A stretch of 64,000 nt of DNA from a virus (taxonomy: Duplodnaviria > Heunggongvirae > Uroviricota > Caudoviricetes). The translations under genes were made by a program, and so were the position numbers. The notes beneath the pieces are model-generated. The model was given only the letters and a program-made list of their open reading frames with translations. It had not been told where the DNA came from and ran no database searches. Every line of letters begins with the position of its first letter. The first letter of the stretch is position 1. The DNA is taken from the IMG/VR virus record IMGVR_UViG_3300032053_000007, one strand, 5' to 3'. Shown one piece after another: positions 804-55,068 of this stretch.

Positions 804-962
804 ATGAGTTTCGAATATGATGGACTTTGGATTCATGCAACCGATAGATATAGTATAGAATGGAAAATGAAGGGCGAAAATCTTATTCCACCAGTTGAGG
901 GATTTCATCATCAATTTATTATTCTGAGACATCTTGGAAAAGAACAGAGACTCGAAAGTTGA
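804..962 (+). CDS. small hypothetical protein (52 aa)
   Basis: Hand-translated ATG ORF; stop lies inside the TGAGCATGG terminator/promoter module. Confidence 0.3.
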   Translation: MSFEYDGLWIHATDRYSIEWKMKGENLIPPVEGFHHQFIILRHLGKEQRLES

Positions 963-995
963 GCATGGTCTTTCTAGGGCAAGGTTTATATAGGA
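958..995 (+). promoter_or_regulatory. conserved promoter module (TTGAGCATGGTCTTTCTAGGGCAAGG-TTTATATA-GGACG)
   Basis: BRE/TATA-like TTTATATA at 985-992, upstream GAGCATGG plus T-tract; about 30 nt to the ATG. Confidence 0.6.
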
Positions 996-1028
996 CGAAT
1001 GCGTGTATATATTCAAGGTAAGAAAAAA

Positions 1029-1298
1029 ATGATAAAACAAATCCGAAGTTGTATGCGGATTCCTTTAGAAAACATAAGCGAAGACGAGAAACGAAAAATC
1101 AAGGAAATGGATGGGCGAATCGTTGTAGTTAATGTTGAAGAACCGTGTCTTACTTGTGGACGACATAAACGTATGAAGTACACACAACATATTGACGGAA
1201 AGCTATTCGTTATTGAGGAATGTCTCTACTGCACAATCAACAACGGGAATGGCAAATTACATGGGATTCTCACATACGCCAATAGACAAACGAAGTAG
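1029..1298 (+). CDS. small Zn-ribbon protein
   Basis: In-frame ATG about 37 nt after the TATA (track ORF 999-1298); CxxC...CxxC. Confidence 0.45.
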   Translation: MIKQIRSCMRIPLENISEDEKRKIKEMDGRIVVVNVEEPCLTCGRHKRMKYTQHIDGKLFVIEECLYCTINNGNGKLHGILTYANRQTK

Positions 1299-1306
1299 AT
1301 GGTTTT

Positions 1307-1537
1307 ATGCCAGATTATATGTCAATGGTTTACATCGGAGAAAAAACTTATCTTGTTGACCGAGAAGCATACTATTTGCTTTGTAAGTTACAAGAGAAGA
1401 AGATGCCGAGAACCCCATATGAGACTATCTATCTAAAAGTTCTTAGCTGGCTAGTGGATAATAAAAAAGCCATTGAATTATCGCAGAAACCAATACAATT
1501 GGTAATACCGCATTTCAATCAATGGAGCGAAGAATAA
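1307..1537 (+). CDS. hypothetical protein (76 aa)
   Basis: Track ORF. Confidence 0.4.
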   Translation: MPDYMSMVYIGEKTYLVDREAYYLLCKLQEKKMPRTPYETIYLKVLSWLVDNKKAIELSQKPIQLVIPHFNQWSEE

Positions 1538-1546
1538 AGGTGGTGA

Positions 1547-1933
1547 ATGAGTTTGAACCCTAGATGTCCAGAACCAAAATGTATTAGATTACTGCGAACC
1601 AGAAAACTCATAACTAACTTGGGATTATCCGAATGCCCTAACTGTAAAAGAAGTCAATCTAAGCCATTCATCTTGACCGAGAAAAAGAAAGGTATGCGTA
1701 AATGCTTGAAATGCCGCAAAGATTTCATGCCTAAATGCCGAGAAGGACTCACCAAATATTTCATATGCCAAGACCATCCGTGGCAGAAATTCAAAGTTGG
1801 TGCAGAAGTCATCTCATACAAGACTAAACCAAAGACGGCAGAAGAATTAGTTAGAGATGCTGGCGCAAAGAAACCATTCCAAGCGAAGAAGAAACAGAGG
1901 CAATCTAATGTCCAAATGCGACCACGAGCATAA
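1547..1933 (+). CDS. Lys-rich Zn-ribbon protein (128 aa)
   Basis: Track ORF; CPEPKC...CPNC...CLKC pairs, K/R-rich tail. Confidence 0.5.
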   Translation: MSLNPRCPEPKCIRLLRTRKLITNLGLSECPNCKRSQSKPFILTEKKKGMRKCLKCRKDFMPKCREGLTKYFICQDHPWQKFKVGAEVISYKTKPKTAEELVRDAGAKKPFQAKKKQRQSNVQMRPRA

Positions 1934-2165
1934 GGTCTGCGAAAGTCGTTTGCGTACAGTCCTTAAAGGTGTAACCGCAAAGATGTTGGAAGTAGTATTT
2001 GACTTCATAGTTCTCGACCTTATCTTCCAACGTCCAGCGGAATCTTTAGGCGTAGCAATTGGGATAGAAGGACTTTGTTATGCTATTACCTATTTCAATG
2101 AACGTGGATGGAATAGAATACAATGGGGAAGAAAAATAATCAATGTTGCCACTAATAGAAATTGA
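1908..2165 (+). CDS. hypothetical protein (about 85 aa)
   Basis: Internal ATG of track ORF 1857-2165; overlaps neighbours. Confidence 0.3.
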   Translation: MSKCDHEHKVCESRLRTVLKGVTAKMLEVVFDFIVLDLIFQRPAESLGVAIGIEGLCYAITYFNERGWNRIQWGRKIINVATNRN

Positions 2166-3078
2166 GGGCTTCAAAGTTTCTTTCACTCTTCTTTGGGTTA
2201 GAGATGATACCCCATTTTTAGGGAAAGTAGCTAAAGATGTAGTTCTTCTTGTGCCTATTTACAATACTACAAGACGTTGCTGGAAAGTTTTCGAACGAGC
2301 ACTTTATCGCTTAGACCCACAGCCTGAAAAAGTCATCTTCTGCGAAAACAATAGCGTAGATAATACTCTTGAACTGATTGAAAAGTTTCAGTTGCCACAC
2401 GAAGTTATTCGTATTTGGTTCAAAGAAGATGCCGCTAAGGGACAACCTTATGAGCCAATAGCTAATGTTCGTCAACTGCTTTTAACACGGGCAAGAACAT
2501 TTGGTGCAAACATAGCGATATTTCTCGATGATGACTGTATCCCACAGGATAAAGATTTTATTCAAAGGTTTTTGGATAATATTTATTACGACAATAATCT
2601 CGATATTTGTGGCGGGTCATATACTAGGGATTTTCCACAAGAAACTATGGTAGCAACCGTATGGTCTATTGATGCTCCTATTAAGGACATGCCGAAAGGG
2701 ACTGTTCCGATTATAAAACGAGGAATTGCAAAAGAGATAAGAAAAGCCAGACAACTTAATCTTAATGTTCTCGGCTTTAAATATCAAGATTATGACGAGG
2801 GAAAGATATACAAAGCGACTTGCACAAGTGCTGGTGCTTTGGCGTTAAGCAGAAAAATTCTTAATGATAAAAGATTGAATTTTGTTCCTATACGCCATGA
2901 TTTGGCTAAACAAGAAGAGGGGGCAAGCGAAGACTTTGGATTTTGTCTTTTAGCTGGTAGTTTGGGATATTCAGTTCATCTTGATTTCAGAATAAAGTTC
3001 GCTCATTTGGGTGCTATGTCTAATGAAACGGCAAAAAACCGTCCGTGGGCTACCTATGTGAAAGATTTCAAATATTGA
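2143..3078 (+). CDS. family-2 glycosyltransferase (GT-A fold)
   Basis: N-terminal LVPIYNTTRR and DxD motif AIFLDDDCIP; 311 aa. Confidence 0.6.
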   Translation: MLPLIEIEGFKVSFTLLWVRDDTPFLGKVAKDVVLLVPIYNTTRRCWKVFERALYRLDPQPEKVIFCENNSVDNTLELIEKFQLPHEVIRIWFKEDAAKGQPYEPIANVRQLLLTRARTFGANIAIFLDDDCIPQDKDFIQRFLDNIYYDNNLDICGGSYTRDFPQETMVATVWSIDAPIKDMPKGTVPIIKRGIAKEIRKARQLNLNVLGFKYQDYDEGKIYKATCTSAGALALSRKILNDKRLNFVPIRHDLAKQEEGASEDFGFCLLAGSLGYSVHLDFRIKFAHLGAMSNETAKNRPWATYVKDFKY

Positions 3079-3115
3079 GCATGGTGTTTTTTACGCAAGA
3101 TTTATATAGGACGAC
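3076..3115 (+). promoter_or_regulatory. conserved promoter module
   Basis: TTGAGCATGGTGTTTTTTACGCAAGA-TTTATATA-GGACG. Confidence 0.55.
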
Positions 3116-3141
3116 TGATATAATAGGATAGTGACCTAAAA

Positions 3142-3309
3142 ATGGGTAAAATAACTATAAGGGATTACGAGAGCTTGAGAAGATGGGCACAAAGAAAAAT
3201 AGGCGAATCCTATAATCTTTGGATAATGGAACAAGCTCTTAGGGAAATAAATGAAGCATTCAAAGCCTATATCGTTATGGGAGCCAAATCAGTAGAGGTT
3301 AATGAATAA
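3142..3309 (+). CDS. small hypothetical protein (55 aa)
   Basis: Hand-translated; TAATG overlap with next gene. Confidence 0.3.
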   Translation: MGKITIRDYESLRRWAQRKIGESYNLWIMEQALREINEAFKAYIVMGAKSVEVNE

Positions 3310-4012: not shown

Positions 4013-4358
4013 ATTGAATTTTCCTAATGCACCACAGATAAAGACAATACGAATAAAAGACAAGTATATATTCAAAGAACCTGATATAGATGAAGACCCC
4101 TATATTATCTGGGTCTGGAACAAAAGACTTCAATCTGGAAATACATTCTATGCAAAGCCTATTAACTTGGTGACGATGAATCTTTATATGGCTAAGAAGA
4201 TGCATGACTGTCCAGAGGATATGGTCGGAATAAGTCAATTCATGAGTGCTGTCTTGGTTGAGGAACTTTCTCATTGTGCAACTCGTTCAATGAAGAATCA
4301 TGAGAATTGGATTAGTTTCTTAGTCAAACTACAGGAGCAACTTCATTATGGCGTATAA
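4002..4358 (+). CDS. hypothetical protein (about 118 aa)
   Basis: Internal ATG of track ORF 3960-4358. Confidence 0.4.
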   Translation: MPLELNFPNAPQIKTIRIKDKYIFKEPDIDEDPYIIWVWNKRLQSGNTFYAKPINLVTMNLYMAKKMHDCPEDMVGISQFMSAVLVEELSHCATRSMKNHENWISFLVKLQEQLHYGV

Positions 4359-5096: not shown

Positions 5097-5112
5097 TTAA
5101 TCAGTTGATTAA
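5097..5112. promoter_or_regulatory. palindromic operator-like site TTAATCAGTTGATTAA
   Basis: Perfect 7-2-7 inverted repeat about 20 nt upstream of the promoter module. Confidence 0.55.
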
Positions 5113-5133
5113 CTGGCATCATAACCTTTAAAT

Positions 5134-5170
5134 TGAGCATGGTTATTCTAGCGTAAGGTTTATAAGGGAC
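5134..5170 (+). promoter_or_regulatory. conserved promoter module
   Basis: TTGAGCATGGTTATTCTAGCGTAAGG-TTTATAAG-GGACG. Confidence 0.55.
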
Positions 5171-5204: not shown

Positions 5205-5897
5205 ATGGCTCTTAATATAGATATGAGATTTTGGATTAACACGTTAATTTTCAATAATCTAGCTGAAATTTGTCCATTGCTAAGTCTTACTGGCGAAGAC
5301 CGAAAGGTTTATGAAATCTGCATTGAAGACTTTAAGAATTATACTGAATATCTTGACAGAAACCATATGAGTGTTGATAAACAAATATCTCAAGAGTTTC
5401 TACCTTCGCAACAAGTAATCATGGAAGAGATTATATCATTAATTGTAGAAAATTTTGGCGTAACCAAAAATTTGCAAGATATAAAAGACACAGAGGAATT
5501 TGTTCATTTTTGGGTTCAGTCGTGGTGGAAGAAATGGCAATATAGGACGAAAATTATTTTCAAAGACCAACCACATATGATTAATGTTAATTCACACTTT
5601 ACGGTGAATGATTTTACAGGAGAAGAACTTAACGAATTAACTCATGTCGTGACTGACAGACTTATACAATGTGGTGAGATATGCTGTGTCAACATTATGG
5701 CTGATGCCCTTATTAAGAAAGATATTCAAGCCGCTCAAAAATCAGAATGGACCGTTCAAGATAAACTTAATCTGATTCCAAGATTGCAAAGAGAAGTTAA
5801 GGAAATGAGTTATACCCACGGTCCACTCGTGTTCATTAAGGCAAACAAAAGTTACGGACTGAGGGAATGGCGGGATGGCTCAAACAAAATTATATAG
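5205..5897 (+). CDS. hypothetical protein (230 aa)
   Basis: Track ORF downstream of the promoter. Confidence 0.5.
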   Translation: MALNIDMRFWINTLIFNNLAEICPLLSLTGEDRKVYEICIEDFKNYTEYLDRNHMSVDKQISQEFLPSQQVIMEEIISLIVENFGVTKNLQDIKDTEEFVHFWVQSWWKKWQYRTKIIFKDQPHMINVNSHFTVNDFTGEELNELTHVVTDRLIQCGEICCVNIMADALIKKDIQAAQKSEWTVQDKLNLIPRLQREVKEMSYTHGPLVFIKANKSYGLREWRDGSNKII

Positions 5898-6343: not shown

Positions 6344-6519
6344 TAAAAGAACTTAGAATACGTCCTTCGATGGTTCAAAGAATTTATTGGACAGACCGAA
6401 AGCCTTACTTCTTTATCGAGTTGTTTCTATTTTTAGATATTCCAGAGTTTCCAAAATACCCAGATGACATTATGGTTCTCGTCAATGAATGGTTGACCCT
6501 CTCATTGATTAGAAGTTGA
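6340..6519 (+). CDS. small hypothetical protein (59 aa)
   Basis: TTG in TTGA overlap; stop inside the TGAGCATGG module. Confidence 0.35.
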   Translation: MIKELRIRPSMVQRIYWTDRKPYFFIELFLFLDIPEFPKYPDDIMVLVNEWLTLSLIRS

Positions 6520-6555
6520 GCATGGAGTTTCTGACGCAAAGTTTAAATAGGACGA
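6516..6555 (+). promoter_or_regulatory. conserved promoter module (TATA variant TTTAAATA)
   Basis: TTGAGCATGGAGTTTCTGACGCAAAG-TTTAAATA-GGACG. Confidence 0.5.
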
Positions 6556-6584: not shown

Positions 6585-7298
6585 ATGAAACAAAAACAGA
6601 AATGTTCATCATGTGGACAAGATTATTTCGTAACAATGTTGAAGGTTTACGTCTTCAAGAAACATACTTGCCCTGACGACAAAACAGAATTGGCGAAGTC
6701 TATTGATGGGAATATTTTTGGTTGCCCTAAATGTAAGAAGGTATTTCGTAAAACTGTTCCAACCGAATGGAATAGTATGGGCACAAAAATTGAGGGTTCA
6801 ACTCGAAGTCTCGAAGAAAAAGGAAAAAGACTAATAAAGGAACCGAACACAGAGGTTGACAATGTTATGATTCCAGAGAAATCAATGTGCCAGAAATGTC
6901 GTAATTGGCAAATTAGAAGCGAACAAGCTACCAAGAATCGTGAACGAAAAATTGCAATGGGTGTGCCTGATGACATAAAGGTGGTTCCAGATTCGATAAG
7001 TAACGCTGATATTTACAAATATGAAATTTTCAGAAAAACCCAGACAGACTATCAGGAAACTAGAAAAGCGGAAGCATATGAACTACAGAAGAAAGAACGT
7101 GCCGCAATGGAAGCTGAACGCCAAGCAAAACTAGCCGAACAATTTAAGAAACCAGAAACTATGATACCCACAAAAGAAGAAATGATACCATTGATTGACC
7201 CCGAAACTGCAAAAATCATAGAAGAAGTAAAGAAGAAAGACGCTCACATAGCCGAACTGAAAAAGAAACTTGAGAAAGCACAAAAGGCTGAGAAGTAA
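6585..7298 (+). CDS. Zn-ribbon/coiled-coil protein with Lys/Glu-rich C-terminus (237 aa)
   Basis: CSSCGQ...CPKCKK...CQKCRN. Confidence 0.5.
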   Translation: MKQKQKCSSCGQDYFVTMLKVYVFKKHTCPDDKTELAKSIDGNIFGCPKCKKVFRKTVPTEWNSMGTKIEGSTRSLEEKGKRLIKEPNTEVDNVMIPEKSMCQKCRNWQIRSEQATKNRERKIAMGVPDDIKVVPDSISNADIYKYEIFRKTQTDYQETRKAEAYELQKKERAAMEAERQAKLAEQFKKPETMIPTKEEMIPLIDPETAKIIEEVKKKDAHIAELKKKLEKAQKAEK

Positions 7299-8416
7299 TG
7301 ACAGGCGCAGATAATCCAGACGAAATCTGGAAACCTTCCAAAGTATTCAAAAGGTTGGAGAAATTAGGAAAGAAGATGAGAAAACCACGAAAGATTCCAG
7401 AAGGATTCGAATGGGACCCTAAAGCTAAAGAATTGATTGATACTAGATGTAATAATGCAAAACTGAGAAAGTTGGTTAAGGAATCTGTTAAGGTTGATTT
7501 CGATAAACCAGCCATATGTATATCTCCATTCTTTACTGGAACAAAGAAACGCCAAAAAGAACTTCCGTGGGAACACTACCCTCATATTCCTATTTTGACA
7601 ACTAATGCCAGACTTAGAAGGTCATTGCTCGGACTTAGACTTCAATGGACAATAAAAGAAGATGGTGAAAATGTTACCATATGGAAGAGAAAGAAACCAC
7701 ATACGCGGAAACAGTTCGAGTTTGTCATATCAAGTCATAATCAAGAGATAGCCGCTAAGGATATTCAAGCCAGAGTAAGAAAAGATTGTGTAGAGGATTA
7801 TGAGAAAATCGTAGCACTAATCGAAGCTAATCCAACATTCAGAGTAATTGTAGAAGAATGTGCCAAAGGTGCAAGCGTCACAGGGATAAGAAGGTATGAA
7901 AAGCCTATCCTGTTCGTTGTTGACATCTACGATACCGCACTCAAGAATTTCCTTCCTTATACACAGGTATATCAATATTGTTATCACTCTAAAATTCCAG
8001 TTGTCCAGCTTTACGCATCAACAAGACACAGAACAATAAAGGATTTGATAAAGTTTTCTAATCACGTTCTGGAATACTGTAACACCGAAAAGGATTACGG
8101 CAAAGATGAAGGTATGGTACTGAAAACATTCGATAAAGAAGGAGAGTATATTCAAGCAAAAGTGAAACTAGATATTCCAAAGCCAATAGTCGAACGGATA
8201 CGAGAGGGACCGCCAAAGTTACCACAAATTCCAGAGAGCGAAATCATGGGTGCAATAAGCCATGTCGAAGCGGACTTTGGATTAGATGGTACACCAAAAC
8301 ATGATATGCCACTTATTGCTAAAGCCGTTTCAGAAGAATGCCGAAAACATCTCTACTCAAGTCGTGGAAACTTGTTCACATTCTATGAAGATTACATGGA
8401 GCGAAGAAAGAAATGA
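7298..8416 (+). CDS. ATP-dependent ligase-like nucleotidyltransferase (RNA/DNA ligase or capping-enzyme superfamily)
   Basis: Motif I KxDG (TIKEDGENV), motif IV-like EGMVLK, motif V-like AKVKLD; 372 aa. Confidence 0.5.
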   Translation: MTGADNPDEIWKPSKVFKRLEKLGKKMRKPRKIPEGFEWDPKAKELIDTRCNNAKLRKLVKESVKVDFDKPAICISPFFTGTKKRQKELPWEHYPHIPILTTNARLRRSLLGLRLQWTIKEDGENVTIWKRKKPHTRKQFEFVISSHNQEIAAKDIQARVRKDCVEDYEKIVALIEANPTFRVIVEECAKGASVTGIRRYEKPILFVVDIYDTALKNFLPYTQVYQYCYHSKIPVVQLYASTRHRTIKDLIKFSNHVLEYCNTEKDYGKDEGMVLKTFDKEGEYIQAKVKLDIPKPIVERIREGPPKLPQIPESEIMGAISHVEADFGLDGTPKHDMPLIAKAVSEECRKHLYSSRGNLFTFYEDYMERRKK

Positions 8417-10935: not shown

Positions 10936-10985
10936 TTGAGCATGGGCGTTCTACCACAAAGTTTATAAGGAATGAATGCGTATTA
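10936..10985 (+). promoter_or_regulatory. conserved promoter module
   Basis: TTGAGCATGGGCGTTCTACCACAAAG-TTTATAAG-GAATG. Confidence 0.5.
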
Positions 10986-11008: not shown

Positions 11009-11404
11009 ATGTTTGAAATCTGGAAAGACCATTTGGCAACTTGTAACATCTTAGAATCTATGACTCCCGAAGGATGGATAATCGTAGATGTTAGAGATAT
11101 AAAGGATGGAACTGGCAACGATATTGAAGCTATAAAAACCAAAATACAAATCATAGCTAACCTTCTTTCTGTCGGGCAAAAAGTTGTAGTTAGATGTTGC
11201 GGCGGAATATCTCGGTCAAATACTATCGCATGTGCCGTAATGGTATTTATGCTTAATATTGACGGCAGAGATTTCGCTTATCATTGGGCAAAAGTTCGAA
11301 AAGCATGTCCACGGGCACTTATAAATATGGGATTCTTTGATGAAGTAAAGAAAGCCTTAGAAGAATTAGGCGTTGAAGAGAAACGGTTATTCTATGATAC
11401 CTAA
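11009..11404 (+). CDS. dual-specificity/tyrosine protein phosphatase (CX5R)
   Basis: VVVRCCGGISRSNTIACAVMVF active-site loop. Confidence 0.6.
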   Translation: MFEIWKDHLATCNILESMTPEGWIIVDVRDIKDGTGNDIEAIKTKIQIIANLLSVGQKVVVRCCGGISRSNTIACAVMVFMLNIDGRDFAYHWAKVRKACPRALINMGFFDEVKKALEELGVEEKRLFYDT

Positions 11405-15679: not shown

Positions 15680-15845
15680 TATAAAAACCTATCGCAAGAT
15701 GTAAATAGGCGTTATACGTGAATTCTTTTAATCATATGATTAAACTTTCAAAATGTGCGATTGGGCAAAAAGCGATTTCAAATCTTAACACCGTGGCTCT
15801 GCTCCGCACCATATGTTCAAACCGACTTATAAATGTTGCGGAAAT

Positions 15846-15885
15846 TGAGTATGGAGTTTCTAGCGCAAGGTTTATAAGGGACGAA
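15846..15885 (+). promoter_or_regulatory. conserved promoter module driving array 1
   Basis: TTGAGTATGGAGTTTCTAGCGCAAGG-TTTATAAG-GGACG. Confidence 0.55.
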
Positions 15886-41745: not shown

Positions 41746-42164
41746 AAGTCTGGGGAATACGTTGGGGGCTGGCAGAGGGCTTCACCATAAACCGAAATCT
41801 AATTGGGAAGAAAAAACGCCTATGTGCGTTATGTGACACTCAGGATTCTACTAAAAATTTAATTTTCGAGGGGACGGAAAGTTACACCGAAAGTGTGACC
41901 TAGCCTTCGTCCTCTAGTGCTTCCTCAAGTTCTGACGGGTCGGGACAACCAACGGGTCGCCTGAAAGTTTTAACTACTTTTGCAAGAACAATTAAACCTA
42001 TTATGAAACCCAGAGTATCAAACGGAAACATATTTGTGCCTCTTTGTGAATACTACAACACGGTAGCTTATAAATCTTTCCCTAAAAACGCCATGCTCAA
42101 TTTCCAGCACAGCTTTCACAATGGTCGCTTTTGCCAAACGGGACGCGGTGCGAGGCGCATTTAA

Positions 42165-42180
42165 TTAATCAGGTGATTAA
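42165..42180. promoter_or_regulatory. palindromic site TTAATCAGGTGATTAA
   Basis: Perfect inverted repeat. Confidence 0.5.
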
Positions 42181-42645: not shown

Positions 42646-42651
42646 CTAAAA

Positions 42652-42690
42652 CGAGCATGGTCGTTCTGGGGAAACCTTTATAAGCTACGC
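42652..42690 (+). promoter_or_regulatory. conserved promoter module
   Basis: CGAGCATGGTCGTTCTGGGGAAACC-TTTATAAG-CTACGCTGGCATCTATA. Confidence 0.55.
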
Positions 42691-44442: not shown

Positions 44443-44448
44443 GTAAAA

Positions 44449-44613
44449 ATGGTTTGCATAATTGACGATAAAGAATGTAGAAAATTGGCAGACGAAATTT
44501 CTAAAGACCTCTTCGAATACAATAAACACAAGATAAAGCTAACCAAAAAATTCTTGTGGACTATGCTTTATTGCGAATTGAAACGAAGTAAACTTAACAA
44601 AACTCGAATGTGA
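44449..44613 (+). CDS. small basic protein (54 aa)
   Basis: Hand-translated. Confidence 0.3.
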   Translation: MVCIIDDKECRKLADEISKDLFEYNKHKIKLTKKFLWTMLYCELKRSKLNKTRM

Positions 44614-44619
44614 TAACTT

Positions 44620-44847
44620 GTGAAATATAAAAGACATTGCACACATTGTAAGAACAATTTTTTCTGCAACGGAAAATGCAAAAGTGATAGACTTAAAAAT
44701 CCGAATGACTGTTATTGTCTTGAGTGTGTAAAAAAAGTTTCGGAAGAGTTTTCAAAGTTGTCTGGGGCAGACTCTACTTATGAATCTTTTAACGTTGTTC
44801 AATTTCATTGCCAAGAATCGGGCAGAGAAGAAGTGCAATTTACTTAA
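44620..44847 (+). CDS. Zn-ribbon protein, CxxCxxxFxC family (...EEVQFT, TAA)
   Basis: CTHCKNNFFCNGKC...CYCLEC. Confidence 0.5.
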   Translation: MKYKRHCTHCKNNFFCNGKCKSDRLKNPNDCYCLECVKKVSEEFSKLSGADSTYESFNVVQFHCQESGREEVQFT

Positions 44848-44896
44848 ACTTTTGGTGCAACCTTTGGTTCGGGCGGGAGAGGGGTTTTGAGAAATT

Positions 44897-44912
44897 TTAA
44901 TCAGTTGATTAA
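44897..44912. promoter_or_regulatory. palindromic site TTAATCAGTTGATTAA
   Basis: 8 nt upstream of the promoter module. Confidence 0.55.
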
Positions 44913-44919
44913 CTAAAAT

Positions 44920-44956
44920 GAACATGGTCTTTCTAAGCAAACATTTAAATAGGACG
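44920..44956 (+). promoter_or_regulatory. conserved promoter module (TTTAAATA)
   Basis: TGAACATGGTCTTTCTAAGCAAACA-TTTAAATA-GGACGCTGGCATCTATACT. Confidence 0.55.
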
Positions 44957-44985
44957 CTGGCATCTATACTCGTAAGGTAATAAAG

Positions 44986-45873
44986 ATGAACTCAGAATTT
45001 GAAAAGATTCATGCAAAGGTCGAATCAGCACTTGAAGGTGCTGGCATCTACGTCAAAGGCATCGAGTTCGTGGACGAACATGGCTACATTGAAAAGTCAA
45101 GAGCGATTCTTGAAATTGTCGGCAACCTTAGATTAGTCGGCGAAACGGGGACGGGCAAAACAACTCTTGTTCACAAGTTGGCTGAATTGTTAGAGGTTCC
45201 GCTTTTTGAAATTGTCTTAACACGGGACGTGACAAAGTGGGATTTGCTGGCATGTGATACTCTGAAAGCTGGAAGCACAGAAACAAGAGATGGAATCATA
45301 ATTCAATGGTTGAACAGCGAGAAAGGTCTGCTTTACATAGACGGGTTCAACTATGCAGAACCATCGATAATTTCACTTCTGGAATCATTGGCAGACTTTA
45401 GGGGAAACGTGTATATTCCAGAATACAAGAAGCAATTCACACGGACAGCACAGCACTATCTCGTTATCAGCTATAACCCCTCAGAAAAATCGGGTTACTC
45501 TGGGACATTCATCGAGAACATTGCAACCATTAGACGATTTGAAGGTCTGATAATCGAATACCTTAGCCCCCAGAAAGAACGCGAATTGGTAAAGAAGTTC
45601 TCTGGAAACTATGACTTTTCTGCGAAGTTCGTAGAAATTGCCAAAAAGACGCGAACCGAATACGAGAACGGAAAACTTAGAACGCCCCTCACGACAGGCA
45701 ACCTAATAAACTACGGCAAACTCTACAAAGCGAAGATGTCCGAAGAGGACATAATCGATATAGCAAGTTCGCTTTACACCGCAAGAGAAGAGCGCAATTT
45801 ATTTAGGTCGTTCTTCGAAGATAGCTCTGAGATAGACGTAGAAAAGTTGAAAAAGAAAGAAGAGGATACCTAA
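44986..45873 (+). CDS. MoxR-family AAA+ ATPase
   Basis: Walker A GETGTGKTTL; Walker B/sensor LLYIDGFNYAEPSIISLLESL; 295 aa. Confidence 0.65.
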   Translation: MNSEFEKIHAKVESALEGAGIYVKGIEFVDEHGYIEKSRAILEIVGNLRLVGETGTGKTTLVHKLAELLEVPLFEIVLTRDVTKWDLLACDTLKAGSTETRDGIIIQWLNSEKGLLYIDGFNYAEPSIISLLESLADFRGNVYIPEYKKQFTRTAQHYLVISYNPSEKSGYSGTFIENIATIRRFEGLIIEYLSPQKERELVKKFSGNYDFSAKFVEIAKKTRTEYENGKLRTPLTTGNLINYGKLYKAKMSEEDIIDIASSLYTAREERNLFRSFFEDSSEIDVEKLKKKEEDT

Positions 45874-46937: not shown

Positions 46938-47300
46938 GTGTTTCAAATGAAATGTCAAGACTGTGAAAAAGAAACAAATACAAAATCTCAAAGATGTCCT
47001 GAATGCCAAAAGATATATCACCAAAAATGGCTAGAAGAATTAAAACTCTGGGCGATTCAAAAGTTAGGCGATAAGTGTTTTCATTGCGATAAACATTTTG
47101 ATTCTTGTGTTTATGATTTTCACCATGAAGGAAACGATACATGGCTTCGTTGCAATGAACAACAAAAAAATGCGAATCGAAGAGTAAAAGAATTGGTTCG
47201 TTGGAGAAGGGCAGAGAAAATTCCAGAGGACGTTCGATTAGTCTGCGCGAATTGTCACAGAATTATTAGTCATAAATCGTTTAATCACCTGATTAAGTAA
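46938..47300 (+). CDS. HNH endonuclease
   Basis: CFHC...DFHHEGND...N...LVCANCHRII. Confidence 0.55.
   Translation: MFQMKCQDCEKETNTKSQRCPECQKIYHQKWLEELKLWAIQKLGDKCFHCDKHFDSCVYDFHHEGNDTWLRCNEQQKNANRRVKELVRWRRAEKIPEDVRLVCANCHRIISHKSFNHLIK
47281..47296. promoter_or_regulatory. palindromic site TTAATCACCTGATTAA
   Basis: Overlaps the 3' end of the HNH gene; 7 nt upstream of the promoter module. Confidence 0.5.
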
Positions 47301-47302
47301 AA

Positions 47303-47340
47303 TGAGAATGGAGATTCCTAGCAAACGTTTATATAGGACG
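47303..47340 (+). promoter_or_regulatory. conserved promoter module
   Basis: TGAGAATGGAGATTCCTAGCAAACG-TTTATATA-GGACGCTG. Confidence 0.55.
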
Positions 47341-47352: not shown

Positions 47353-47368
47353 TTAATCAAGTGATTAA
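47353..47368. promoter_or_regulatory. palindromic site TTAATCAAGTGATTAA between TATA and start codon
   Basis: Second site flanking the same promoter. Confidence 0.5.
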
Positions 47369-49021: not shown

Positions 49022-49266
49022 CTGATTTGAAGAACGTAGCTCGAAAACTTGGGCATATTGGATTTGGAGTTCGAATTGAGGGGGACAAACTAATCGTTTA
49101 TGAGGGATGGATGAAAGATTGTCTGCTCATTCTGGGCGTTAAATCCTATAAGGACGGGCTGGCGAAGAGGGCGAAGCAATTAGAGGCTGAATATGGGCTT
49201 AAACTCGAAAGTTGTAAGATACGGAACAGTATTTCGAGAATGGTCTTTCTGGAACAACCTTTATAA
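49018..49266 (+). CDS. small protein (82 aa)
   Basis: 3' end carries TATA-like CCTTTATAAG for a downstream promoter. Confidence 0.45.
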   Translation: MTDLKNVARKLGHIGFGVRIEGDKLIVYEGWMKDCLLILGVKSYKDGLAKRAKQLEAEYGLKLESCKIRNSISRMVFLEQPL

Positions 49267-49284
49267 GTCACGGTGTTGTTCTAG

Positions 49285-51232: not shown

Positions 51233-51456
51233 AAGAGAAAGGTTGCTTTAACTGTTCGAACAAGAGGAATCTCGACAAGATTTATTATAAATGCACAGAG
51301 ATGCGCTCACAACCTAACTTAACTGAACCGAACGGGAAAGCTACAGGATTTTTAAGGGACGTGAAAACTCCGTTAGGTAGTCCTAGACATTCTTATCGTT
51401 TAGGTTGTTCATGTGAGTATTGGAAGAGTGAACGGGAAACGGTTGAATTTACATGA
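51229..51456 (+). CDS. Cys-containing protein (...TVEFT)
   Basis: TTG start (track ORF 51160-51456); GCFNCSN...GCSCEY. Confidence 0.45.
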   Translation: MKEKGCFNCSNKRNLDKIYYKCTEMRSQPNLTEPNGKATGFLRDVKTPLGSPRHSYRLGCSCEYWKSERETVEFT

Positions 51457-51695
51457 CAAAATTTAAAGGACGTTGTAGAAAATGCAAAAGAATAGTTAGC
51501 GGTCAATTTCCAATTAAACTATTATTGGCTGTTCTCTGCGAAAGTTGTAACGAAGAATGGAAGAGATATTTTTCAAAAAGGTTTGACAAAGAACATGGGA
51601 CGCTTTTAGGTTTTCATACGCCCATTGAAGAATGGGAAAAGGAAAAGTGGTTTAAGGATTTTCTCAACAGCAAAGAGAAGGTAGAGTTTACATGA
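51453..51695 (+). CDS. Zn-ribbon protein, CxxC...LCxxC..W..F family (...EKVEFT)
   Basis: CRKCKR...CESCNEEWKRYF. Confidence 0.55.
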   Translation: MTKFKGRCRKCKRIVSGQFPIKLLLAVLCESCNEEWKRYFSKRFDKEHGTLLGFHTPIEEWEKEKWFKDFLNSKEKVEFT

Positions 51696-52305: not shown

Positions 52306-52321
52306 TTAATCAGTTGATTAA
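52306..52321. promoter_or_regulatory. palindromic site TTAATCAGTTGATTAA
   Basis: Immediately upstream of the promoter module. Confidence 0.55.
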
Positions 52322-52322: not shown

Positions 52323-52360
52323 TCGAACATGGACGTTCTAGGCGAAACTTTATATAGCGC
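52323..52360 (+). promoter_or_regulatory. conserved promoter module
   Basis: GAACATGGACGTTCTAGGCGAAAC-TTTATATA-GCGCGCTGTACT. Confidence 0.55.
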
Positions 52361-52369: not shown

Positions 52370-52385
52370 ATTAATCAGTTGATTA
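52370..52385. promoter_or_regulatory. palindromic site TTAATCAGTTGATTAA between TATA and start codon
   Basis: Same dual-operator layout as at 47.3 kb. Confidence 0.55.
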
Positions 52386-52398
52386 ATTGGTGAACGCG

Positions 52399-52782
52399 AT
52401 GAACACGGAGAAAATTTACTTCGATAACGCTGAACTCGATGGAACAGCTTTGGCTTCTGGGACTATTTCAAGATATGATACTAAAATTACCAAAGTTATC
52501 TATTCCATTGACGGTATAATCGCTGATGATATTGGTGCTGAGTTGTTCGTTCACGAATTCAATGAAGTTGCAATTTATGAAGTATTGAATCGAATTCTTC
52601 CATACGAAAGTTTATCAGCTATTTCTCACAACTTGAACGCTGAAAGCGATAACGAGTATGTAGAAGAGAGAAACCTTTTACATGGTTATGTAAAGAGCGA
52701 TAGACTTCCAGCTATTGACAAAGTTTTCACACAACAAGAAACAGACGAGTTTAGGGCAAGAGCAAACAAACCTAGACGATAA
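52399..52782 (+). CDS. hypothetical protein (about 127 aa)
   Basis: Track ORF 52387-52782. Confidence 0.45.
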   Translation: MNTEKIYFDNAELDGTALASGTISRYDTKITKVIYSIDGIIADDIGAELFVHEFNEVAIYEVLNRILPYESLSAISHNLNAESDNEYVEERNLLHGYVKSDRLPAIDKVFTQQETDEFRARANKPRR

Positions 52783-52784
52783 AC

Positions 52785-52820
52785 GAGCATGGACTTTTTC
52801 CCGAAACATTTATATACTTG
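52785..52820 (+). promoter_or_regulatory. conserved promoter module with no ORF downstream
   Basis: CGAGCATGGACTTTTTCCCGAAACA-TTTATATA. Confidence 0.5.
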
Positions 52821-52839: not shown

Positions 52840-53090
52840 TGACGCACTCGCGTCTAACTAAAGGGCGCGTAAGACCGAAGGACGCACAACGTCCAAAAAC
52901 TTACCGACCCTTCAAAGTCGCTAGGGTTACGTTCGAAATAAGCGACAAGAACGGAACCGCACAAGACCGAAGGTTTGTCTCGCGGTAAAACGGGGCATTC
53001 CACCAACTTGTGCTTCAACTGACAAAAAAACCACAAACCACGTCCGAAAACGGGGCATGGCACACTCTCCATGCCCCCTCTCTCCTTTTT
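52840..53090 (+). ncRNA. candidate ncRNA A (GC-rich, ORF-poor, promoter-to-terminator unit)
   Basis: Internal repeats AAGACCGAAGG ×2 and AAAACGGGGCAT ×2; ends in a 9-bp hairpin plus T-tract. Confidence 0.35.
53052..53090 (+). terminator. intrinsic-terminator-like hairpin GGGGCATGG-N8-CCATGCCCC followed by a T-rich tract
   Basis: Perfect 9-bp stem, then CTCTCTCCTTTTT. Confidence 0.5.
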
Positions 53091-53128
53091 AAGTATGGTC
53101 TTTCTATGACAAGGTTTATATAGGACGC
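53091..53128 (+). promoter_or_regulatory. conserved promoter module (second ncRNA unit)
   Basis: AGTATGGTCTTTCTATGACAAGG-TTTATATA-GGACGCAGACATATTACT. Confidence 0.5.
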
Positions 53129-53149
53129 AGACATATTACTTTTGGGTTC

Positions 53150-53265
53150 GTGCGGAACACTCTCAGATAGTCGGCGAGTTAATGAGCCATGAAAAACCGC
53201 TAGGGTATGGGAGTTAGGCGTGGGTAATGGCACTCACGGTGTATCAGCCACACGAACTCACTAAT
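53150..53265 (+). ncRNA. candidate short ncRNA B
   Basis: Promoter followed by a GC-rich ORF-free segment ending at the next promoter module. Confidence 0.25.
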
Positions 53266-53300: not shown

Positions 53301-53324
53301 TGGGTGTGTATTATACTCTTCCGC

Positions 53325-53440
53325 ACGTTGAAAAATCCTTATGCGGTGCGATACGACATAGGGCAAATTTCAACCTCTACATTAAATAAAACTAGGGTCA
53401 CGGCGAAACGCACTAGCCAAGACCCCCCTAAAATTTTGAG
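53325..53440 (+). ncRNA. candidate short ncRNA C
   Basis: As for unit B; contains GGTCACGGCGAAACGCACTAGCC. Confidence 0.25.
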
Positions 53441-53475
53441 CACGTTCTTTCTTAGCAAACCTTTATATAGGACGG
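53436..53475 (+). promoter_or_regulatory. conserved promoter module
   Basis: TTTTGAGCACGTTCTTTCTTAGCAAACC-TTTATATA-GGACG. Confidence 0.5.
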
Positions 53476-53503: not shown

Positions 53504-53893
53504 ATGAAATTGCAAGAACTTAGGGAAAAGTTGACATCGAAGGACGTTAAACCCTCAGAGTCATGGCTAGAAAATCAATATCCAGCACAACCATCTGAAC
53601 GATACTCTAAGCTAACATATTTGAACCTAGCGAACATTGAGGACAATTTCGGCAAAGAGGCAAAAGAACAACTAGAAAAATATCTTCTAAAGAACCCAGA
53701 AAAACGTGTCGTTGTTCTCGCGGAACTCACAGAGAAGGGCAATGTCAAAAAGCGACCCAGAATCTTCGTAGATTCAGGTGTTGGTTATGACAACTTTGCG
53801 TCATACTACGGAATCTATGAGCTATTCGCGTGTTCCGTTCACATGCACGGATTCATTGAAGTTTTCCAGAATATCAAAGACGGACAACAATAG
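53504..53893 (+). CDS. hypothetical protein (129 aa)
   Basis: Track ORF. Confidence 0.5.
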   Translation: MKLQELREKLTSKDVKPSESWLENQYPAQPSERYSKLTYLNLANIEDNFGKEAKEQLEKYLLKNPEKRVVVLAELTEKGNVKKRPRIFVDSGVGYDNFASYYGIYELFACSVHMHGFIEVFQNIKDGQQ

Positions 53894-53904
53894 GTGACTG
53901 AGCA

Positions 53905-54252
53905 ATGAAGAACTTCCTAACATCAAAAGACAAATTCCCACCCGTCCATTGCAATGTTTTCCAAGACTATGACAGATTAGACGCGCTGGCAAAGAAACGG
54001 GGCTACCACGCTATTGAACTAGGAAATGACGACAAAATTACGACCCGTTCAGGCACAGGGCTTCAAAATGAACACCTTCATTCTGGATGGATAACAACTA
54101 TGGGTGAATCTGGAACAGACCCGAAAGCAATGACCGAATTGCTGAAAGACAAGATAAAAGAGTGCGAAACGCGCGGAGAAACCGTTATTATTGGCTTCTG
54201 CCAAACGGGATGGTTCTCAGTCGGATATACGCTTTACTTGAAGGACGCTTAA
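53905..54252 (+). CDS. hypothetical protein (115 aa)
   Basis: Track ORF. Confidence 0.5.
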   Translation: MKNFLTSKDKFPPVHCNVFQDYDRLDALAKKRGYHAIELGNDDKITTRSGTGLQNEHLHSGWITTMGESGTDPKAMTELLKDKIKECETRGETVIIGFCQTGWFSVGYTLYLKDA

Positions 54253-54255
54253 GCC

Positions 54256-54435
54256 ATGATGGACAAAGAGTTTAAGGTCAAAATAACCCCTAAACAAGCT
54301 CGATACGTCATAAAGCTCTTGAAAGATGCCGTAAAGACGAAAAGACGCAAAAAACAGCAAAACATCGACAGCATTGAAATACTCGTCACGGACATCGACA
54401 TTCAGGTATCAACCGAGAACACACGATTTCTCTAA
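54256..54435 (+). CDS. small basic protein (59 aa)
   Basis: Hand-translated. Confidence 0.3.
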   Translation: MMDKEFKVKITPKQARYVIKLLKDAVKTKRRKKQQNIDSIEILVTDIDIQVSTENTRFL

Positions 54436-54449
54436 CCTTCTCTTTTTTT

Positions 54450-54485
54450 GTGCATGGACGTTCTACCACAATCTTTATATAGCTG
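54450..54485 (+). promoter_or_regulatory. conserved promoter module
   Basis: TGCATGGACGTTCTACCACAATC-TTTATATA. Confidence 0.5.
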
Positions 54486-54608
54486 TTTGATTATTGTATT
54501 ACTCGTATGAGCACGGGAACAAGGTTTCCAAACTACGTCCTTAGCTGACGAGTGATGGACGCTTATTGGAGAATCGTCCGTGTTCCGCGCTAATCTAAGT
54601 GGTCTAAA

Positions 54609-54746
54609 ATGATAACACTAAAAACCGTGATTAAGAAAGTAAAAGAGAACGCTGGCATAATCATGGCATTTGCCCCGATAGCCTTTTTCGTAGTTGTAAT
54701 AGCTCTAATACTTTCTGGAATACTCAAAGTTCACATTGAATTTTGA
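54609..54746 (+). CDS. small membrane protein (45 aa)
   Basis: Hydrophobic core; stop inside the TGAGCATGG module. Confidence 0.35.
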   Translation: MITLKTVIKKVKENAGIIMAFAPIAFFVVVIALILSGILKVHIEF

Positions 54747-54780
54747 GCATGGACGTTCTTAGGAAACCTTTATATAGCTC
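54744..54780 (+). promoter_or_regulatory. conserved promoter module
   Basis: TGAGCATGGACGTTCTTAGGAAACC-TTTATATA. Confidence 0.5.
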
Positions 54781-54800
54781 GGTGTTGTTGTTATTATCAA

Positions 54801-55028
54801 GTGAACAAGATGGTCAAGCAAAAAATAGGATTCTTTAAGTGGCTCTACACAAGAACCATCGAAGTCATACGTGACCCTCTAACCCAAAGTATAGGGGCAA
54901 TTCTGGGTGGAATTTTCATTTTCGCTTTTTCTGCTACTTTTGGTGCGCTATTCTCGCCTCTTCTATTTTTGGGTGTCCCTGTTGGAATATTGGTACTACT
55001 CTACGGAGTCTATAAAGTCGAACACTAG
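54801..55028 (+). CDS. small membrane protein (75 aa)
   Basis: Two TM helices. Confidence 0.5.
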   Translation: MNKMVKQKIGFFKWLYTRTIEVIRDPLTQSIGAILGGIFIFAFSATFGALFSPLLFLGVPVGILVLLYGVYKVEH

Positions 55029-55031
55029 ATT

Positions 55032-55068
55032 CGAGCATGGTCTTTCTACCACAACCTTTATATACCCG
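55032..55068 (+). promoter_or_regulatory. conserved promoter module opening an ORF-free island
   Basis: CGAGCATGGTCTTTCTACCACAACC-TTTATATA. Confidence 0.45.

Follow-up and report, generated by a model that had tools for sequence, protein, structure and literature searches.

A promoter cassette of 38 nt is repeated 31 times in the window (the whole 64,000-nt stretch analysed here), 29 times on the + strand between 959 and 55068 and twice on the - strand (42063-42100 and 56189-56226), and this 31-fold recurrence in an element of ~152 kb points to a dedicated transcription programme. On balance, it is probable that this is an archaeal-type cassette in which an asymmetric upstream word (UE) and a BRE/TATA core are read as a unit, and that the UE is bound by a sequence-specific factor aiding TBP and TFB. 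The block carrying the cassette (class 1) makes up 54 kb of the element, ~80 kb of which was covered by the sequence analysed.

The copies score 31-56 bits with an iterated 38-nt weight matrix, against a maximum of 12.4 bits over 50 shuffles, and the exact word GAGCATGG is found 15 times in the window where 1.05 occurrences are expected. Since the matrix places its 29 + strand copies at 959-55068, an earlier note on this DNA, which had counted ~27 copies at 958-55068, was right in both count and coordinates. The class-1 modules are as follows (L numbers denote related loci).

959-996, + strand: 55.7 bits; ATG at 1029, 44 nt from the TATA start; motif positions kept in orthologous promoters of L032, L022, L033, L017, L011 and L035
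3075-3112, + strand: 47.1 bits; drives ORF 3142-3309; its TGA, in TTGAGC, ends the GT2 gene 2143-3078
5133-5170, + strand: 46.6 bits; before ORF 5205-5897; L033, L009 and L024 lack it before the orthologous gene
6516-6553, + strand: 46.2 bits; before ORF 6585-7298 and RNA-ligase-like ORF 7298-8416
10936-10973, + strand: 41.9 bits; before ORF 11009-11404
15845-15882, + strand: 49.9 bits; before ORF 15911-16153, first of a long series of overlapping small genes
21392-21429, + strand: 42.7 bits; before ORF 21460-21681
25010-25047, + strand: 44.2 bits; upstream ORF (ending KVTFT) stops in the module TGA; ORFs >=35 aa absent from the standard distance
25762-25799, + strand: 40.5 bits; before ORF 25819/25828-26235
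26430-26467, + strand: 47.2 bits; before a short ORF from ~26499
28960-28997, + strand: 45.2 bits; TATA variant TTTATTAG; behind a KaiC-like ATPase operon
31482-31519, + strand: 46.2 bits; before SPFH/Band-7 gene 31554-32450; its TGA is the stop of the upstream ORF (ending RVQFT)
32468-32505, + strand: weaker module (TTGTATATGG), 31.4 bits; before ORF 32538-33218
33506-33543, + strand: 39.1 bits; before ORF 33563-33853; TAA within TTTATAAG is the upstream ORF stop
33850-33887, + strand: 39.3 bits; before ORF 33917-34174 and AAA-like ORF 34175-35041
37044-37081, + strand: 46.9 bits; before an ORF from ~37109
38010-38047, + strand: 38.5 bits; UE variant GAGTACGT; before ORF 38068/38077-38343
42063-42100, - strand: 41.6 bits; before small ORF 41900-42031
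42651-42688, + strand: 47.1 bits; before vWA gene 42715-44442
44918-44955, + strand: 44.0 bits; before MoxR-type AAA gene 44986-45873
47302-47339, + strand: 39.3 bits; before ORF 47361/47370-48059
49234-49271, + strand: 40.8 bits; no ORF found at the standard distance
52323-52360, + strand: 44.7 bits; before ORF 52387-52782
52783-52820, + strand: 35.2 bits; predicted to drive a ~250-nt non-coding RNA (about 52840-53090)
53089-53126, + strand: 43.7 bits; predicted to drive a ~120-nt non-coding segment
53265-53302, + strand: 42.0 bits; predicted to drive a ~115-nt conserved segment (non-coding or small ORF)
53436-53473, + strand: 47.9 bits; UE variant GAGCACGT; before ORF 53504-53893
54448-54485, + strand: 40.8 bits; then ~110 nt of conserved non-coding sequence
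54743-54780, + strand: 50.7 bits; before an ORF from ~54810
55031-55068, + strand: 44.4 bits; last + strand module; reads into a non-coding region, C-rich and CTAAC-rich from 55070
56189-56226, - strand: 46.7 bits; predicted to drive a ~270-nt non-coding transcript toward 55895

The module consensus is TT-GAGCATGG-N3-TTCT-N5-AA-N2-TTTATA[TA/AG]-G. In a conservation profile built on the window and its relatives (113 non-identical instances) and numbered from the G of GAGCATGG, the conserved upstream positions are T-1 and T0, GAGCATGG at 1-8 and TTCT at 12-15, followed by S18, AA at 21-22, TTTATA at 25-30, TA or AG at 31-32, G33 and finally C/G at 36 and G37. The TATA sequence reads TTTATAWR, and the A at -3 from it is present in 100% of instances. 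Past position 37, all preferences are weak (T39, G40 and W at 44-54, the last forming an AT-rich stretch), and a purine stands at position 56, ~31 nt downstream of the TATA start, in 81%. Copies vary freely at positions 9-11, 16-20 and 23-24 and are fixed elsewhere; motif positions are kept in the orthologous promoters of the relatives compared, while flanks diverge.

The two parts keep a strict register. All 29 + strand UEs in the window are accompanied by a TATA, and among 175 UE matches in the window and ~40 loci, 136 have it in register (offset 0), and no shifted TATA is seen within +/-8. Additionally, all 31 copies are oriented toward a downstream gene or RNA; start codons peak at 41-44 nt from the TATA start, the interval of 36-46 nt taking in 62 of 96, and 57 of the 96 are preceded by an SD-like 4-mer. 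This uniform orientation and fixed start-codon distance support the archaeal BRE/TATA architecture proposed in the earlier note, as do the presence of the same module in a Bathyarchaeia MAG contig and the lack of enrichment of bacterial signals, both sigma-70-like sites (27 vs 32 +/- 5.6 expected) and intrinsic terminators (8 vs 12.5 expected). The same note had also described a conserved downstream block. This was overstated, as GACGCTGRCATMTATACT matches two sites at <=3 mismatches, and its "initiator" GACGCTGRCATCTATACT is weakly conserved and, at about -23 to -6, falls downstream of the TATA but short of the predicted start site, which does not fit that role.

Read in this way, positions 17-37 would form a strong BRE/TATA core for cellular TBP and TFB, and positions -1 to 15 (TT-GAGCATGG-N3-TTCT) an asymmetric 16-base UE abutting the BRE at an invariant distance. 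A core followed by an AT-rich stretch and, ~31 nt on, a purine implies that transcripts would start 10-14 nt upstream of the start codon, on the SD-like sequence or immediately ahead of it, as this geometry predicts. Most probably, a sequence-specific factor binds the UE and, through a fixed geometry, stabilises TBP/TFB on the core beside it or licenses them there; recruitment would be of the activator type, as with archaeal activators bound directly upstream of the BRE, rather than repressive. The UE would mark one regulatory class of ~31 transcription units, comprising small, mostly uncharacterised genes and several non-coding RNAs.

Several module copies are predicted to drive conserved non-coding RNAs. 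For instance, the 52840-53090 RNA has a 3' end consisting of a GC hairpin and U5, a fold z of -4.6, and 79-86% nucleotide identity in L037, L010 and L006. The ~115-nt segment behind the 53265 module is 83-99% identical in L037, L006 and L010, and the - strand transcript from 56189-56226 is predicted to end with a hairpin and T-run.

One core is found with three upstream states in the element: the UE, a dyad (class 2) or neither (class 3). The second promoter class reported previously is confirmed, although what defines it is an upstream dyad specific to it, cTGTA-N9-10-TACAg, and the supposedly shared leader is merely an SD-like sequence: the full leader TATACTMTTAAGGACGTG has two matches, both exact, even at <=3 mismatches, although its core AAGGACGTG is enriched (6 vs 0.39 expected). 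The class-2 promoters lie at 56.6-63.1 kb.

56664-56707, - strand: divergent from 56713-56756
56713-56756, + strand: dyad plus AAAC-G-TTTATAAG; before ORF 56784-57287
59539-59582, - strand
59898-59941, - strand: divergent from 59947-59990
59947-59990, + strand: before ORF 60025-60498
61421-61464, - strand
62017-62060, + strand
62233-62276, + strand: before ORF 62296-62538
62549-62592, + strand: with TGTTCTACAGTTAAAAGCGAAGGTTTAAATA
63061-63104, + strand

The core without the UE occurs at ~37 further sites in the window (27 on the + strand, 10 on the - strand) and no other type is present in the flanks (10 kb on the left of the window, 6.5 kb on the right). Blocks with the dyad or the bare core thus point to a programme of promoter classes in the element.

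The module is kept in relatives from peat and sediment metagenomes. L047, whose vWA protein is ~68% identical, has 17 copies with the UE variant GAGCATG(T/G)(T/G), and the more distant L055 (42% identity) has an unchanged core preceded, at the usual UE position, by another UE, CTCTATGG-N-AGA. The exact module is present in only one archaeal genome out of 185,579 species representatives, on a Bathyarchaeia MAG contig, and is therefore not a general host promoter feature. On the basis of that contig and the promoter architecture, the element appears to be linked to Bathyarchaeia. Single UE promoters also occur on three chromosomal-looking contigs: in L003, a Bathyarchaeia MAG, adjoining thiolase and HMG-CoA synthase genes; in L016, with a methylase-Mrr gene on one side and a NERD nuclease gene on the other; and in L018, before a GHKL ATPase gene. 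A host-encoded factor with a few host targets is therefore possible.

The rigid UE-TATA spacing, the separate classes on one core and the different UE in L055 make a dedicated factor for the UE plausible, and it is probably lineage-specific and encoded by the element. Pfam was compared with 131 ORFs of the window (121 on the + strand, >=62 aa, and 10 selected others). No recognisable HTH regulator and no candidate UE-binding protein were found among them, nor were TBP, TFB or RNA polymerase homologues found there or in the precomputed Pfam annotation of ~16 kb of flanks, which counts against an element-encoded general initiation factor. A TFIIB zinc-ribbon match in ORF 29395-29586 is partial and under the Pfam cut-off.

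Known systems offer partial parallels. In phages, promoter classes are read by phage-encoded factors, such as the sigma or appropriator systems of T4 and SPO1 and T7-type polymerases. The element resembles these in its long, near-invariant repeated promoters, in classes occupying distinct blocks and in a word that changes between related genomes, but its core is BRE/TATA rather than -35/-10 or T7-type, and scanning the ORFs and flanks revealed neither a polymerase nor a sigma gene. To our knowledge, no archaeal virus encodes such a specificity factor. The upstream activating sites of Ptr2 (Methanocaldococcus) and TFB-RF1 (Pyrococcus) are bound just upstream of the BRE; they serve a single host promoter or a handful, and their sequences are dyad-like or show loose conservation. 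The UE likewise abuts the BRE and would help to recruit TBP or TFB; however, it is an asymmetric 16-nt word in 31 copies and one exact register. In Sulfolobales viruses (SIRV2, SMV, SSV), early and anti-defence genes have in common a near-identical BRE/TATA and, flanking it, virus-specific sequences, which differ between virus lineages and are thought to bind virus-encoded regulators, and Aca-type control has been proposed (PMC11065993). Here too, a strong core with a genome-specific flank recurs before many genes of a single archaeal mobile genome, in ~31 copies compared with 11/13 early genes in SIRV2 (PMC11065993). Shared promoter-flanking sequences were thus already known, and the element's module may be considered a variant that differs in its asymmetric UE, wholly upstream of the BRE with invariant spacing; in at least two further promoter classes on the same core; and in an element of ~152 kb, apparently Bathyarchaeia-linked, with no Aca8-like regulator recognised in the ORFs scanned.

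Other readings were weighed against a UE-binding activator. It had been suggested that the upstream half often contains the preceding stop codon and doubles as a terminator. Among 30 copies (including a weak copy at 60513), the stop lies within the module in 11, as the TGA of TTGAGC in nine and the TAA of TTTATAAG in two, but not in the remainder. A terminator or RNA 3'-end signal, placed next to promoters through genome compactness, would account for these stops and for T5+ runs at -40 to +16 in eight of the 30 copies (10% background). Nevertheless, it is highly improbable: the longest T run in the module, whose conserved word is TTCT, is 2-3 T in 25 of the 30 copies, fewer than a terminator requires; a conserved hairpin partner is lacking, since covariation is limited to adjacent positions; some copies have a long non-coding gap, not a gene, ahead of them; and an RNA-end signal would need neither a constant TATA partner nor a single spacing to it. 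A bacterial sigma-factor or T7-like promoter, starting at GGAC directly after TATATA, is just as improbable. Long conserved promoters in many copies are typical of phages with their own polymerase or sigma factor, and TATA followed by GG resembles a T7-type promoter end, yet TTGAGC and TATAWR are 22 bp apart, beyond the sigma-70 range, sigma-70-like sites are unenriched, polymerase and sigma Pfam matches are absent from the ORFs and flanks, 50,697 phage records and IMG/VR gave no similarity, and an archaeal MAG carries the module as well. Spread by copying, as a MITE-like repeat or cassette boundary with no shared function, has the least to commend it. Although presence varies among relatives (only the window lineage has the copy before ORF 5205-5897), free variation at unconstrained positions with fixity elsewhere indicates selection rather than recent copying, orientation and start-codon distance are strict, and terminal inverted repeats and target duplications are absent.

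Two readings merit more consideration. The UE could be an UP-like enhancer for host basal machinery or a host transcription factor, the element simply copying the best host-readable sequence. The standard BRE/TATA core, the single UE promoters on chromosomal-looking contigs, Bathyarchaeia MAG included, and the lack of a recognised TBP, TFB or regulator in the ORFs scanned are consistent with this, but it is unlikely given that the exact module is on one archaeal contig among the representative genomes, that the UE changes between element lineages over a constant core, and that other blocks of the same element lack it. The UE could instead be an operator for a repressor that shuts the gene class off after an early burst, in an Aca-type-like manner, which we regard as quite unlikely. 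Archaeal activators usually bind upstream of the BRE, and the asymmetric UE occupies this place. The genes behind the module do suit such control, being small, uncharacterised and early or anti-defence-like, including a Lar-like restriction-alleviation protein, and the Sulfolobales viruses provide a precedent (PMC11065993).

A better candidate for a repressor site than the UE is the separate palindrome TTAATCA-NN-TGATTAA, which takes operator-like positions near some modules, including over the predicted start site. A near-palindrome with one mismatch, TTAAACAGTTGATTAA, ends 8 nt upstream of the 42651 module, and a palindrome end likewise lies 8 nt upstream of the 44918 module. At the 49234 module the palindrome is 25 nt from the TATA start, while the 47302 module has TTAATCA-NN-TGATTAA on both sides and the 52323 module is flanked by two palindromes.

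The exact octamer GAGCATGG occurs 15 times in the window, against 1.05 expected. A weight matrix seeded on these copies and iterated to convergence recovered 29 copies of a 38-nt promoter module (class 1) on the + strand, between 959 and 55068, which confirms the copy count (about 27) and coordinates of an earlier note made from the sequence. Two more copies lie on the - strand, at 42063-42100 and 56189-56226. The 31 copies score 31-56 bits, compared to 12.4 bits for the best of 50 window shuffles. Conservation was profiled over 113 non-identical instances pooled from the window and related loci, and no conservation was found among them upstream of position -4. The upstream element (UE) spans module positions -1 to 15, position 1 being the G of GAGCATGG, and is followed by a BRE/TATA core.

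Conservation along the class-1 module and the sequence that follows it
Positions -1 to 0: T and T, in 70% and 86%
Positions 1-8: GAGCATGG, with A5 and G7 invariant
Positions 9-11: free
Positions 12-15: TTCT, 89-100%
Positions 16-20: variable, G/C-rich
Positions 21-22: AA, 98-100%
Positions 23-24: free
Positions 25-30: TTTATA, 88-100% of the 113 instances
Positions 31-32: TA (63 instances) or AG (42 instances)
Position 33: G
Position 36: C or G
Position 37: G
Positions 39 and 40: T and G, both weak
Positions 44-54: AT-rich
Position 56: purine, 81%

Within the module, mutual information is high between adjacent positions only; a hairpin, or covariation of any other kind, was therefore rejected. 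GAGCATGG and the downstream GACGCTGG agree at 5 of 8 positions, and reading them as a direct repeat was judged unconvincing. The downstream block GACGCTGRCATMTATACT, which had been put forward as a conserved initiator, was found at only 2 sites with up to 3 mismatches and is not conserved as claimed.

Archaeal TATA boxes are 8-bp A/T-rich sequences of the TTTAWATA type, and positions 25-32 conform to this type, with TTTATA followed by TA or AG. Such boxes are centred near -26/-27, with transcription beginning at a purine some 25-30 nt beyond TATA. Starts are therefore predicted at about module position 55-57, coinciding with the purine present 31 nt after the TATA start in 81% of instances and preceded by an AT-rich stretch. 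The archaeal BRE is purine-rich and lies directly upstream of TATA, with A at -3 and G at -6 (PMC11065993). Counted from TATA, positions -3 and -4 are A in 98-100% of the 113 instances, and the bases at -6 are G (42%), C (34%) and A (18%). The arrangement with respect to genes is regular: all class-1 copies point in the same direction as the downstream feature, the distance from the TATA start to the first ATG whose frame stays open throughout the extracted sequence peaks at 41-44 nt (38 of 96) and is 36-46 nt in 62 of 96, and an SD-like 4-mer is present at -16 to -4 in 57 of 96. Predicted leaders would thus be 10-14 nt long and begin at the SD. The module very probably functions as a promoter.

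A bacterial reading fits less well. Sigma-70 promoters have -35 and -10 hexamers 16-19 bp apart, and this type was rejected because TTGAGC and TATAWR are separated by 22 bp in the module. Between 42 and 57 kb, neither sigma-70-like sites (27, against 32.1 ± 5.6 expected) nor intrinsic terminators (8, against 12.5 expected) are enriched, and the sigma-70-like sites do not coincide with modules. No sigma or polymerase domain was found by Pfam among 131 scanned window ORFs, nor was a gene for a T7-type single-subunit polymerase found in the window or in about 16 kb of its flanks, together about 80 kb of the ~152-kb element. Alternatively, the T-tract of the UE might end the upstream transcript, as the earlier note proposed. 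Archaeal intrinsic terminators have a run of at least five T at the transcript end, whereas at positions 9-16 the longest run has 2 T (14 copies), 3 T (11), 4 T (3) or 5-6 T (2); with 2-3 T in 25 of 30 copies, the tract does not qualify. Runs of five or more T do occur within -40 to +16 of 8 of the 30 copies, relative to a background of 10%, and therefore some promoters are preceded by ordinary T-tract terminators, the module itself not being one. The same note had the module often containing the preceding gene's stop codon. This holds for 11 of 30 copies, as the TGA of TTGAGC in nine and the TAA of TTTATAAG in two, and not for the remainder; these stop codons simply reflect a very compact genome.

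In the window, all 29 + strand matches to the UE alone have a core promoter in register, and another 27 + strand and 10 - strand sites have the core alone (AA-NN-TTTAWAWR with context). Of 175 UE matches in the window and about 40 non-redundant loci, 136 have TATA at the exact canonical offset and 39 have no TATA, no match having it elsewhere within ±8 nt; chance UE matches number roughly 2 per shuffled window. The UE ends 9 nt before TATA and abuts the BRE upstream, with rigid spacing in 136 of 136 paired cases. Upstream activating sites of archaeal activators, each with a known cognate activator, occupy this position. Such spacing would be superfluous for a signal in the upstream gene's RNA, which argues against an RNA-level role.

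Six or seven class-1 copies lack an ORF at the standard distance, and the segments behind them have 79-100% nucleotide identity in relatives. These copies are predicted from sequence to drive putative non-coding RNAs:

Promoter-driven non-coding segments
52840-53090, + strand: follows module 52783-52820; fold z = -4.6; ends in a GC hairpin and U5
53140-53265, + strand: conserved in relatives
53315-53435, + strand: conserved in relatives
54500-54610, + strand: conserved in relatives
55895-56165, - strand: ends in a hairpin and T-run; z = -2.3

None of these segments matched Rfam, and tRNA and Rfam scans of the window as a whole found nothing.

Two other promoter classes use the same kind of core. 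Class 2 lies at 56.6-63.1 kb, where it has six + strand and four - strand copies; its core, AAAC-N-TTTAWATA, is the same as that of class 1 and is preceded by the inverted repeat cTGTA-N9-10-TACAg. The earlier note had described a second class with a shared leader, and the class is real, with AAGGACGTG present 6 times. The full 18-mer leader has only two matches, each of them exact. The five + strand copies of AAGGACGTG lie between directly on the start codon and 9 nt before it, and the sequence is therefore SD-like. Class 3 lacks an upstream element, and its core has an extended BRE (AACCGCAAC). Promoters in the flanks of the window are of class 3 only, and thus class 1 is confined to one 54-kb block. 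Additionally, tandem core-promoter-like units (ACCGAAAC-N-TTATATACTAC) are present at 59407-59490, with 26-nt spacing, and at 63609-63800, on both strands; instead of promoters, these could be iterons or arrays of TBP-binding sites.

The window also has 24 matches, at up to 2 mismatches (20 exact), to a separate palindrome, TTAATCA-NN-TGATTAA, against 1.1 expected; the palindrome is found throughout related loci. In several class-1 promoters it is located 4-8 nt before the UE and/or 22-25 nt after the TATA start. It is likely to be an operator for a dimeric regulator, and is a better candidate for a repressor operator than the UE.

Palindrome sites, among others
5097-5112
42165-42180
44897-44912
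47281-47296
47353-47368
52306-52321
52371-52386
55814-55829

Related loci show how the UE has evolved. In orthologous genes the constrained positions are kept and the flanks diverge; the promoter before the ORF at 5205-5897 is present in the window lineage only. The words found upstream of the core in three relatives are listed here by decreasing vWA protein identity to the window:

Upstream words in three related loci
L047, vWA about 68% identical: 17 copies of GAGCATG(T/G)(T/G)-N2-TTCT in 22.7 kb
L055, vWA 42% identical, 112.8-kb contig: a different word, (A/T)CG-N-TC-Y-ATGG-N-AG-R, in about six promoters (3393, 4105, 7944, 13373, 14349 and 14551), before the same BRE/TATA core
L056, vWA 33% identical: upstream word CCATAGAG

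An upstream word that changes in concert in each lineage, next to a constant core, is the expected product of a lineage-specific reader. Under the mechanism proposed here, host TBP and TFB would read the core, and a class-specific factor bound at the UE would adjoin TFB in fixed geometry and promote initiation; this factor may be element-encoded. We consider the existence of a dedicated UE reader somewhat favoured, and its origin from the element a reasonable suggestion that falls a little short of even odds. No protein cognate to the UE was identified. Among the 131 window ORFs, Pfam recognised no TBP, TFB, polymerase or HTH/wHTH protein, although divergent regulators may escape Pfam, and the minus-strand small ORFs near divergent promoters, scanned for regulators, gave no Pfam matches. 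A TFB-like protein was rejected, since the sole lead was a TFIIB zinc-ribbon match in a 63-aa ORF that covers 18 of 43 profile positions and is below the cut-off, and is therefore a generic zinc ribbon. A more speculative extension is that the element encodes its own specificity factors, one for the UE and one for the class-2 dyad, each docking by host TFB/TBP to give a staged programme on a shared core. If this is true, it would be an archaeal counterpart of phage sigma/activator cascades, and we know of no archaeal virus for which one has been described. Co-evolution of factor and site would then underlie the change of UE between element lineages, and single UE promoters in chromosomal islands (with methylase, NERD and GHKL ATPase genes) could be host genes fired by a viral factor.

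A 30-nt pattern, GAGCATGG-N3-TTCT-N5-AA-N2-TTTATA, retrieved 38 metagenome loci from peat bogs and freshwater sediments. Most of these have several module copies and encode syntenic homologues of window proteins. Among 185,579 species-representative genomes, three contigs contain the pattern. Two are bacterial with a single match each, one scoring 26.5 bits on the full matrix and the other below the 15-bit threshold, and look like chance. The third, from the Bathyarchaeia MAG JBEKKX010000005.1 (locus L003), has a module at 4239(+) with a score of 46.9 bits, at about 1 kb from a thiolase/HMG-CoA-synthase operon of the mevalonate pathway. A non-coding stretch precedes this module and has a 58-nt segment in common with the element loci L026 and L023. 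A metagenome contig of 159 kb, identical to this one, stops about 850 bp beyond the module, as expected for a variable or integrated region. Two chromosomal-looking contigs also have single copies, one between a methylase-Mrr gene and a NERD nuclease gene, near TldD/PmbA (L016, 11191(-)), and one before a GHKL ATPase gene adjoining a C5 methylase gene (L018, 4510(-)). Like the copy in L003, these could be remnants of integration or could belong to host island genes using the same signal. Host promoters in general do not have the module. On the indirect evidence of the L003 locus, Bathyarchaeia are therefore the best host candidate.

The closest precedent is found in Sulfolobales viruses, where virus-specific conserved sequences surround a near-identical BRE/TATA at anti-defence genes and early genes, expressed immediately after infection (PMC11065993). 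Similarly, genes in the window share conserved sequence around a near-identical strong core, in 31 copies, but the case differs in scale and host group, in having several promoter classes, and in its asymmetric element, which lies upstream only and at invariant register. Gene content of the early/anti-defence type is hinted at by a Lar-like restriction-alleviation protein and many small proteins without known function. An Aca-type wHTH regulator, as in the Sulfolobales viruses, was not seen, there being no HTH/wHTH Pfam match among the 131 window ORFs, a scan in which divergent ones may be missed. As far as we are aware, archaeal viruses are thought to be wholly dependent on host RNA polymerase and general factors, and we know of no cultured host-virus system for Bathyarchaeia. 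Little is known about the ordering of gene expression in large archaeal viruses, for which this element offers a clean, sequence-defined system: one host-type core and interchangeable upstream words sort well over 40 transcription units into classes, and because the word changes lineage-wide, the existence of a class-specific factor is open to direct test. As a probe the module has practical value too, the 30-nt pattern having linked the family to Bathyarchaeia.

The element itself is large, uncharacterised, and virus-like or plasmid-like. The window (37% G+C; genes small and nearly all on the + strand) lies in ENA contig ERZ27247916 k141_6238898, of 151,756 bp; locus L052 is identical to it across their overlap, and a further contig of 86 kb is near-identical. 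A nucleotide search against 50,697 phage records gave no match, and IMG/VR yielded nothing by motif or by a family-specific conserved 232-aa protein. The left flank encodes glycan-synthesis genes, a ParB_N protein and a trypsin-like protease, and the right flank a dCMP deaminase, the large subunit of ribonucleotide reductase and an HNH endonuclease. Within the window are an RNA-ligase-like protein, a GT2 glycosyltransferase, a KaiC-like ATPase, an SPFH protein, HNH endonucleases and the Lar-like protein, along with more than 25 small CxxC...CxxC zinc-ribbon proteins. Several weak Pfam matches are to DUF7569, DUF7351, DUF7573 and DUF7129, which we take to be defined by Pfam on archaeal proteins. 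A 575-aa protein gave nothing useful against PDB by phmmer and was identified by homologue search as a vWA protein; with a MoxR-type AAA ATPase it forms a conserved pair (42715-45873), each member having its own class-1 promoter. Homologues lie on contigs of up to 147 kb, and some of those of the vWA protein contain inteins or LAGLIDADG domains and are about 900 aa long.

Many ORFs between 15911 and 51907 share a C-terminal tail, ...(E)(K/V/R)-V-x-F-T*, found in 50 of 158 + strand ORFs against 0.4 expected (for instance 17099-17347, 18619-18930, 40024-40233 and 51453-51695) and in relatives (11 in L008, 13 in L014 and 10 in L020). At the DNA level the consensus is RARGARAAGGTNNNNTTYACWTGA, in which AAGGT or GAGGT is the SD of the next gene and the ATG or TTG of that gene overlaps the TGA stop; variation is at third codon positions. 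Four such junctions lead directly into a class-1 module. Four ORFs keep the tail despite a TAA or TAG stop and the absence of an overlapping start; the tail may therefore act as a C-terminal tag of the protein.

Lastly, about 1.5 kb at 55070-56600 has no ORFs, is C-rich with CTAAC-type repeats, and is bordered by divergent promoters. It is also where the near-identical 86-kb assembly breaks, and the cumulative GC skew changes direction near 52-54 kb. This region may be a replication origin, terminus or attachment region. In the Bathyarchaeia contig, the sequence before the module (4060-4120) is of similar composition.
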